Below the pieces are notes generated by a model that saw only the letters and a list, made by a program, of their open reading frames with translations, was not told the origin of the DNA and made no database searches. DNA of 64,000 bases, taken from sequence record PP738783.1. One strand, 5' to 3'. Every line of letters begins with the position of its first letter. The first letter of the stretch is position 1. A program made the position numbers and the translations under genes. Positions 36,804 to 37,046 of this stretch are shown here, in pieces. Origin of the DNA: Klebsiella phage vB_KpnM_Tauntaun_ER47.

Positions 36804-37046
36804 AATAATTATTATAATTAATATTAAATTAGATCTTGAATTTATAAATGATTTATGATAAAATTTATTAATTATAATTATTATAGATCAAATAATTTTT
36901 GAAATCAAGTAAAAATAAATTTGATTTTATTAATTAGATCATGTATAATTATTCTTTTAATAATATATTATATTAGATCAAATAAAATTTGACTACAAAT
37001 TAATATAGTATATTATAGATCAACTGGGTAAATTGGTGAGTATGTT
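36804..37046. promoter_or_regulatory. AT-rich element with TAGATCA heptamer repeats (x4, plus TAGATCT x1) and early-promoter-like boxes upstream of uvsY; oriF-equivalent position
   Basis: Five GATC sites in about 240 bp of under-20% GC DNA, all within TAGATC(A/T). TTGAAT/TTGACT -35-like and TATAAT-like boxes. Confidence 0.55.

Follow-up and report, generated by a model that had tools for sequence, protein, structure and literature searches.

To our knowledge, T4 itself is the only T4-type phage whose replication origins are known experimentally. T4 oriF and oriG each consist of a promoter and an A+T-rich DNA-unwinding element (DUE), and their transcripts form R-loops that prime the leading strand and are later removed by UvsW, which unwinds origin R-loops (PMC3016281). 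OriE, oriF and oriG sit where transcription switches strand, and according to the T4 replication review no motif shared by the origins has been found (PMC3016281). Here we report on the spacer between gp24 and uvsY of Klebsiella phage vB_KpnM_Tauntaun_ER47 (sequence record PP738783.1), analysed within a stretch of 64,000 nucleotides that we call the window and to which all coordinates refer unless a genome is named. The source phage belongs to Slopekvirus (the Klebsiella phage Miro/KP27 type), and the spacer lies directly upstream of uvsY, at the address of T4 oriF, as a preliminary description of this DNA had stated. By sequence, it is one of three paralogous modules, each made of opposed, overlapping promoter matches with GATC sites in the promoter cores and set in DNA that is less stable than any other in the genome. 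We consider that there is a somewhat better than even chance that the tract is a stack of sigma-70-type early promoters bearing Dam sites, three of them directed toward uvsY and two in the opposite direction. Promoter activity, methylation sensitivity and origin function are what we infer from this arrangement.

The GATC sites also invite comparison with systems controlled by Dam methylation. SeqA binds co-operatively to GATC pairs that are up to ~31 bp apart, and in IS10 (pIN/pOUT), as in IS50, opposed and overlapping promoters carry a Dam site in the -10 region. The link between IS10 and Dam is listed in PMC10073500, and oriC, with 11 GATC sites, and the dnaA promoter, with eight, are both sequestered by SeqA after replication (PMC10073500).

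The Klebsiella phage locus shares with T4 oriF and oriG its place beside uvsY, the combination of a promoter with an easily melted segment, a nearby uvsW and a position at or near a strand switch. However, T4 oriF uses a MotA-box middle promoter, has its DUE inside uvsY and has no GATC array, whereas the Slopekvirus site has plain -35/-10 types, opposed overlapping pairs and Dam sites. Upstream of T4 uvsY we find ATGCTTCA-N12-TATAAT (a MotA box and a -10 box) with a spacer of ~50 bp after gene 25, one GATC nearby and no AT-rich tract, and the same short layout precedes uvsY in RB49-type and Winklervirus phages. None of the 190 GATC sites of the 169-kb T4 genome falls in an AT-rich segment, so the earlier statement that T4 origins lack such an array is correct. 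In that short words recur within what may be an origin, the locus also recalls the iterons of T4 oriE (PMC3016281), but the words here have a 7-nt core, are unevenly spaced and are embedded in promoter hexamers. Like oriC and the dnaA promoter, the locus has GATC sites clustered within ~250 bp, at a promoter or putative origin, in a system that has a Dam methylase (PMC10073500); in comparison with oriC, the GATC density is half, the sites lie 39-54 bp apart and most of them are missing from one or another Slopekvirus genome. The resemblance to IS10 lies in overlapping, opposed and mutually exclusive promoters, one of which has GATC at its -10 box, and core GATC sites are found here in the forms TGATC-TATAAT, GATC-TTGAAT and within a spacer. 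Such a layout would readily tie the choice of promoter to a passing replication fork. Unlike IS10, the phage locus has no transposase and no antisense-target relationship, and its predicted start sites nearly coincide, so that the RNAs would barely overlap. A promoter with a DUE, Dam sites in promoters and opposed promoters are each of a known kind; what is new is their combination, the three-fold paralogy described below and the replacement between genera. We found neither these tracts nor the element that replaces them described in the KP15/KP27 genome paper or in the T4 reviews.

GATC sites and promoter matches upstream of uvsY

The features of the tract are as follows; promoter matches come from consensus scans for sigma-70-type -35/-10 hexamers, with scores out of 12.

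36774-36803, plus strand: gene 24 terminator, a GGTGGAGTA / TACTCCACC hairpin followed by TTTT, forming the left border of the AT-rich tract
36800-37030, no strand: AT-rich tract R3, ~11% GC, a candidate DUE
36830-36836, plus strand: TAGATCT, whose GATC (36832-36835) abuts the -35 box TTGAAT of P+A; lost in 2 of 11 relatives
36836-36864, plus strand: predicted promoter P+A, TTGAAT-17-TAAAAT, its -10 box extended by a preceding TGn, toward uvsY
36877-36917 and 36967-37007, plus strand: 41-nt direct repeat, the copies carrying P-A and P-B, respectively; 76% identity, 90 bp apart
36880-36908, minus strand: predicted promoter P-A, TTGATT-17-TATAAT, with GATC abutting the -10 box; faces the reversed gp24 terminator, away from uvsY
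36921-36949, plus strand: predicted promoter P+B, TTGATT-17-TATAAT, toward uvsY
36967-36995, minus strand: predicted promoter P-B, TAGTCA-17-TATAAT (alternative register TTGTAG-17-TAATAT), opposed to P+B
36989-37016, plus strand: predicted promoter P+C, TTGACT-16-TATTAT, uvsY-proximal, 30 bp before the uvsY start codon

The preliminary description had reported four copies of TAGATCA and one of TAGATCT in AT-rich DNA between the gene 24 terminator and uvsY, and we indeed find TAGATCA on the plus strand at 36884, 36935, 36974 and 37016 and TAGATCT at 36830, with the flanks as claimed. The tract from 36803 to 37025 has a GC content of 10.8%, and 10 of its 24 G/C bases fall within the five GATC sites. 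The clustering of these five sites in 223 bp is not random, as none of 200,000 mononucleotide shuffles reached even four sites (maximum 3). The intervals between the sites are uneven (54, 51, 39 and 42 bp). The heptamer TAGATCA is not enriched in the window as a whole (10 found, 8.3 expected); four copies lie within 139 bp at uvsY and two more in 2297-2553, so the signal is one of local clustering.

The heptamer is a fragment of longer repeats and not itself the repeat unit. The 11-mer TGATCTATAAT, in which GATC abuts a -10 box, occurs four times in the window against an expectation of 0.03, twice on the minus strand of the uvsY tract (36880-36890 and 37012-37022) and twice on the plus strand of 2297-2553. 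It is absent from T4, and all five copies in the 174-kb KP27 genome lie inside that genome's three AT-rich tracts. A further repeat, TATTATAGATCAA, is present twice in the uvsY tract. Of all 100-bp windows in the KP27 genome, the one with the lowest duplex stability also lies in this tract (z=6.6).

The boxes resembling -35 and -10 hexamers that had been noticed earlier resolve into the five sigma-70-type matches listed above, each scoring 9-10/12, and the heptamers fall within or beside them. Copy 1 (36884-36890) is the GATC/-10 junction of P-A, copy 2 (36935-36941) lies in the spacer of P+B, copy 3 (36974-36980) is at or beside the -10 box of P-B, and copy 4 (37016-37022) covers the discriminator and start site of P+C, its opposite strand being TGATCTATAAT. 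On the minus strand, the flanking TA/A of copies 1 and 4 are the first two bases of the -10 box and the T before GATC. Most G/C bases of the tract belong to GATC, to the TTGA of a -35 box or to the TG of an extended -10. The GATC-TTGAAT junction of P+A recurs in 2297-2553, and a GATC-TTGAAA junction is present at gp3|p206 of phage Lw1. Over the genome, GATC occurs within 9 of 16 promoter-like matches inside the three tracts, compared with 9 of 95 elsewhere. Equivalents of P-B and P+C were annotated independently by the depositors of KP27, one promoter per strand. From these predictions uvsY would be the gene served by P+A, P+B and P+C.

The promoter matches are arranged in opposed pairs, with 15 bp between the -10 boxes of P+A and P-A and 17 bp between those of P+B and P-B. 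At this distance the predicted start sites nearly coincide and the polymerase footprints would be mutually exclusive, so that each pair could hold only one polymerase at a time. Starts are predicted close to 36871, 36956 and 37023 on the plus strand and to 36873 and 36960 on the minus strand. The same geometry is found twice in 2297-2553, hereafter R2 (gaps of 14 and 13 bp), and once in the third tract, R1 (16 bp), whereas shuffled sequences yield opposed pairs with 13-17 bp between the -10 boxes at a rate of ~0.01 per region (P at most 0.005 for each).

Competing content in the tract is confined to open reading frames (ORFs) with TTG starts of 21-32 amino acids, with none of at least 33, and a hidden small gene was rejected on this ground. 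The late-promoter box TATAAATA was not found in the tract, and Rfam gave no credible match in it or in the element of RB43-type phages described below. No DnaA box was seen in the tract by eye, no pattern search having been made.

Paralogous tracts and their counterparts in sister genera

A census of the whole KP27 genome for stretches of at least 250 bp at no more than 20% GC returned exactly three tracts of ~260 bp each, all with GATC arrays.

R1, KP27 31206-31473, outside the window: between rnh (minus strand) and gp55 (plus strand), 9 GATC
R2, KP27 100489-100745 (window 2297-2553): between gp3 (minus strand) and p206 (plus strand), 8 GATC
R2 predicted opposed promoter pairs, window 2324-2352 versus 2395-2367 and 2440-2468 versus 2510-2482, with TGATCTATAAT on the plus strand at 2342 and 2458
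R3, KP27 134975-135243: between gp24 (plus strand) and uvsY (plus strand), 5 GATC

R3 and R2 are the only long AT-rich tracts in the window. In 100-bp windows they rank as the least stable duplexes together with R1 (z=6.6 for R3, 5.9 for R2 and 5.0 for R1; the next value is 3.4). R3 aligns in inverted orientation with both repeat units of R2 at 70-74% identity over 88-111 nt; the likeness to an array at 2262-2592 pointed out in the preliminary description is therefore that of inverted paralogues. When R2 was used as query, almost all Slopekvirus records matched it at three places. Transcription diverges exactly at R1 and at R2, and R3 lies beside the uvsY/uvsW switch; R1 and R2 have GATC pairs 5-23 bp apart. 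We take T4 oriG (ori(34)) to lie where rnh and gene 34 adjoin, and oriE to lie in the vicinity of genes 53 and 5, which would presumably put R1 and R2 at or near the oriG and oriE addresses.

Several further observations concern these two tracts. R1 contains a perfect 18-bp palindrome, CTACAATGATCATTGTAG, centred on GATC (KP27 31288-31305). This palindrome takes up the whole spacer of a promoter match, TTGACC-17-TAAAAT, that is directed toward rnh; it resembles an operator, and neither R2 nor R3 has one like it. In Squirrel_ER27 and KpCCP1, R2 is ~28 bp longer (93% identity, compared with at least 99% in most genomes), which suggests expansion or contraction of repeat units. The gene that the GATC-TATAAT promoters of R2 would drive, p206 (2614-3402), is found at the same place in RB43-type phages with 81% identity. 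It matched no Pfam domain and only PHROGs of unknown function, and it was rejected on that account as an adjacent initiator.

Site conservation was followed at R3 in 11 Slopekvirus genomes. Each keeps three to five GATC sites, two genomes having only three of the five. The sole invariant GATC (11/11) is the one at the P+C start site (37018); each of the other four is lost in one or two of the 11 genomes, mostly by G/C to A/T changes.

We compared the same spacer in sister genera, namely RB43, RB16, Lw1 and Karamvirus-type Cronobacter, Enterobacter and Citrobacter phages, whose UvsY is 71-85% identical. The heptamer array was not found in their gp24-uvsY spacers, which contain an inverted-repeat element of ~170-220 bp instead. 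Across the genera, the heptamer array itself is thus not conserved. The element is present in about three copies per genome, and the copies that could be placed lie at rnh|gp55, gp3|p206 and gp24|uvsY. Its outer arms, GAGCGAAGCGA and CGAACGAAGTGAG, contain G and C and are largely invariant. An inner stem of 7-11 bp closes an AT-rich loop with the invariant motif TTTATATATAGAG, and this stem exists in three fully compensated versions (CTACAT/ATGTAG, GTACTG/CAGTAC and ATGTCC/GGACAT), with two copies from the same contig (loci L012 and L020) sharing one version. RNAalifold recovered the outer arms and missed the covarying inner stem, which was therefore measured directly. A 15-mer scan of viral contigs for the core of the element was too unspecific; among the matches listed, five loci were of use. 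Example copies are L009:2265-2450, L019:1250-1415 and L076:1240-1405, and the element was unannotated in 64 of 64 records.

The inverted-repeat element is flanked by divergent promoters with an 11/12 match to consensus, most of which have a GATC fixed in the spacer while the neighbouring spacer bases vary; one promoter at gp24|uvsY faces left, toward no gene. We found no alignable similarity between the element and the Slopekvirus tracts. The two have in common the same three sites, an AT-rich core and opposed sigma-70 promoters with spacer GATC, although the promoters of the element are divergent and those of Slopekvirus interleaved. Taken together, what appears to be conserved across genera is a set of three fixed addresses at which predicted strong promoters of opposite orientation carry Dam sites in their cores. 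The clade offers exactly three paralogous, position-conserved cis-elements, one of them at the oriF address, whose type has been swapped between sister genera.

Proposed promoter and origin functions and rival explanations

Under the promoter-stack reading, host RNA polymerase would fire from the modules early in infection and drive uvsY. Host and phage Dam would set how the GATC sites of the promoter cores are methylated, and this state might bias which member of a pair fires, as in pIN and pOUT of IS10. Infecting DNA would be fully methylated and freshly replicated DNA hemimethylated, so that expression of uvsY, and at R1 of gp55 and gp46/47, would be coupled to replication. The opposed promoters could in addition melt the least stable DNA of the genome and send RNAs both ways from one point, priming both directions, which would make the modules the best candidates for origins in the style of oriF and oriG. 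That they also serve as such transcription-primed origins is plausible, though we hold it to fall short of an even chance; this view draws on position and architecture, with five predicted promoters directing transcription into an element that contains the least stable 100 bp of the genome. A bolder version, which we regard as doubtful, would have the modules act as methylation-gated, bidirectional, transcription-primed origins that fire on fully methylated parental DNA only, as a three-copy set exchanged between genera, with a GATC/AT type in Slopekvirus and a covarying hairpin type in RB43-like phages. If so, the origin cassettes of T4-type phages would be exchangeable and evolve in concert while keeping their places in the genome. 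Both the location of origins and a link between transcription, Dam methylation and firing are directly testable in therapeutic Klebsiella phages.

Several observations weigh against these proposals. Promoter-like hexamers are frequent by chance in AT-rich DNA, and a generic promoter scan of the uvsY tract gave 9 matches compared with 5.0 +/- 2.4 in dinucleotide shuffles. The strongest GATC-TATAAT promoters of the tract face away from uvsY. Among the 11 genomes, 5 of 20 GATC columns are variable compared with 21 of 208 others (p=0.06), so constraint on the sites is not visibly stronger. GATC is abundant throughout the window (453 sites, 254 expected from dinucleotide shuffles and 1.75 times the base-composition prediction); a second-order Markov model gives an observed/expected ratio of 0.99, and genome-wide selection for GATC was rejected because trinucleotide (codon) usage fully accounts for the abundance. 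This codon effect means that the abundance of GATC offers no independent sign of selection for Dam sites. Against origin function, the MotA-box core TGCTT of the T4 oriF type was found neither in the KP27 gp24-uvsY spacer nor, by eye, in window 36743-37046. T4 MotA and AsiA gave no tblastn match in KP27 (best E values 3.3 and 1.5), and for both reasons a MotA-type middle promoter at the uvsY tract was rejected.

One alternative is an ordinary early-promoter hub with no part in replication or methylation sensing, in which the GATC sites are passengers of a cassette duplicated to three sites. Since all GATC sites lie within paralogous repeat units, their recurrence could reflect copying rather than selection; the decay of sites in some genomes, mostly from G/C to A/T, and the fact that uvsY needs a promoter anyway would fit as well. 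Yet in genera whose promoters have diverged in other respects, spacer GATC persists at the same loci, with varying bases around it and with its position shifted; promoter-like sequences outside the tracts seldom contain GATC; and promoters that face left are retained with no gene on that side to drive, so that we judge a plain hub unlikely. A different alternative is the one raised in the preliminary description, in which the heptamers bind a phage initiator as iterons, or bind SeqA when hemimethylated, and binding or sequestration gates firing. What stands of the Dam/SeqA suggestion is a GATC density far above expectation (5-9 sites per ~260 bp of AT-rich DNA, resembling oriC and the dnaA promoter; PMC10073500) in a phage that encodes a Dam methylase; R1 and R2 have GATC pairs close enough for co-operative binding, and the joint replacement of all three copies in sister genera would suit co-evolution with a lineage-specific binding protein. 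The spacing at R3 itself speaks against it, as 39-54 bp exceeds the ~31-bp limit, and so does the fact that some relatives do without one or another of four of the five sites. Nor do the heptamers behave as iterons, for which at least three regular direct repeats of ~12-22 bp would be expected: they share no more than 7 bp, none of the longer units is present more than twice, the spacing is irregular, and the flanking bases are explained as GATC/-10 or other core-promoter junctions. No candidate for a dedicated initiator was found with Pfam or PHROG, p206 having no known domain. The spacing, the loss of sites in relatives and the ability of promoter hexamers to account for the flanking bases thus weaken the iteron/SeqA explanation, which we regard as quite unlikely.

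Extreme AT content by itself, and generic promoter matches that exceed shuffled sequences only modestly, might point to a non-specific AT-rich spacer or a tract for an H-NS-type nucleoid protein with chance promoter-like words. This is very unlikely, given three syntenic paralogues, an 11-mer confined to them, a recurrent pair geometry and rare G/C bases that sit at the positions defining promoters. Least probable of all, to the point of being hardly credible, is a packaging or recombination site in the form of either a physical genome end or a GATC cluster like the pac site of P1, which is GATC-rich and controlled by methylation. Many database assemblies do begin or end inside R3 or R2, but the breakpoints are scattered through the tract and occur equally in R2, giving complementary contigs of 35 kb and 140 kb, and packaging in T4-type phages proceeds by the headful, with no fixed end (PMC3016281). 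Scattered breaks in low-coverage, AT-rich inverted paralogues point to an assembly artefact and not to real ends, and a physical end or pac site was rejected on the strength of the equal clustering in R2 and the complementary contigs. The breaks, seen in GenBank and IMG/VR assemblies, fall within window 36877-36974 in R3 and 2374-2447 in R2, the two tracts that flank the late-gene block. They are of practical concern, as the tracts disrupt genome assemblies of a widely used phage group.

Neighbouring genes and further observations

A 1.1-kb query (36400-37500) is 99.9% identical to vB_KpnM_Earwig_ER32 and at least 99% identical to Miro, PMBT1 and phiEap-3. After gp23 come a gene for a GIY-YIG homing endonuclease, gp24, a 304-bp spacer, uvsY and an ORF with DUF2685, followed by uvsW.1 and uvsW, which are convergent on the opposite strand. 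The gene 24 terminator is annotated in Miro, KP27 and KP15, and RNA of its minus strand forms a hairpin as well.

34785-35420: inserted gene for a GIY-YIG homing endonuclease, annotated as SegD-like, which separates gp23 from gp24 and precedes the array by one gene
35453-36742: gp24
37047-37466, plus strand: uvsY, recombination mediator (Pfam PF11056 UvsY, E=2e-37; PHROG 231)
38214-39713, minus strand: uvsW helicase, an ORF convergent with uvsY and annotated as UvsW in Miro and KP27
51560-52411, plus strand: phage Dam orthologue, a GATC N6-adenine methyltransferase of the D12 class (Pfam PF02086, E=1.7e-34)

Over its full length, the Dam ORF can be aligned with the DNA adenine methylase of PDB entries 1yfj and 1q0s (E=9e-85, the best among solved structures), which we take to be T4 Dam. 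It is a candidate trans-acting modifier of the GATC arrays; Dam is also encoded by enterobacterial hosts.

In the lineage whose UvsY is 71-74% identical (L013:2350-2500 and L014), a small Cys-rich ORF (CxxC...CxxC) lies between the inverted-repeat element and uvsY. Finally, a coding segment at KP27 ~125249-125560 (roughly window 27050-27370, by an unchecked offset), with a GC content of 0.44, has nine GATC sites in 260 bp, a density equal to that of the AT-rich arrays, and contains the sole GATCTATAAT outside those arrays.

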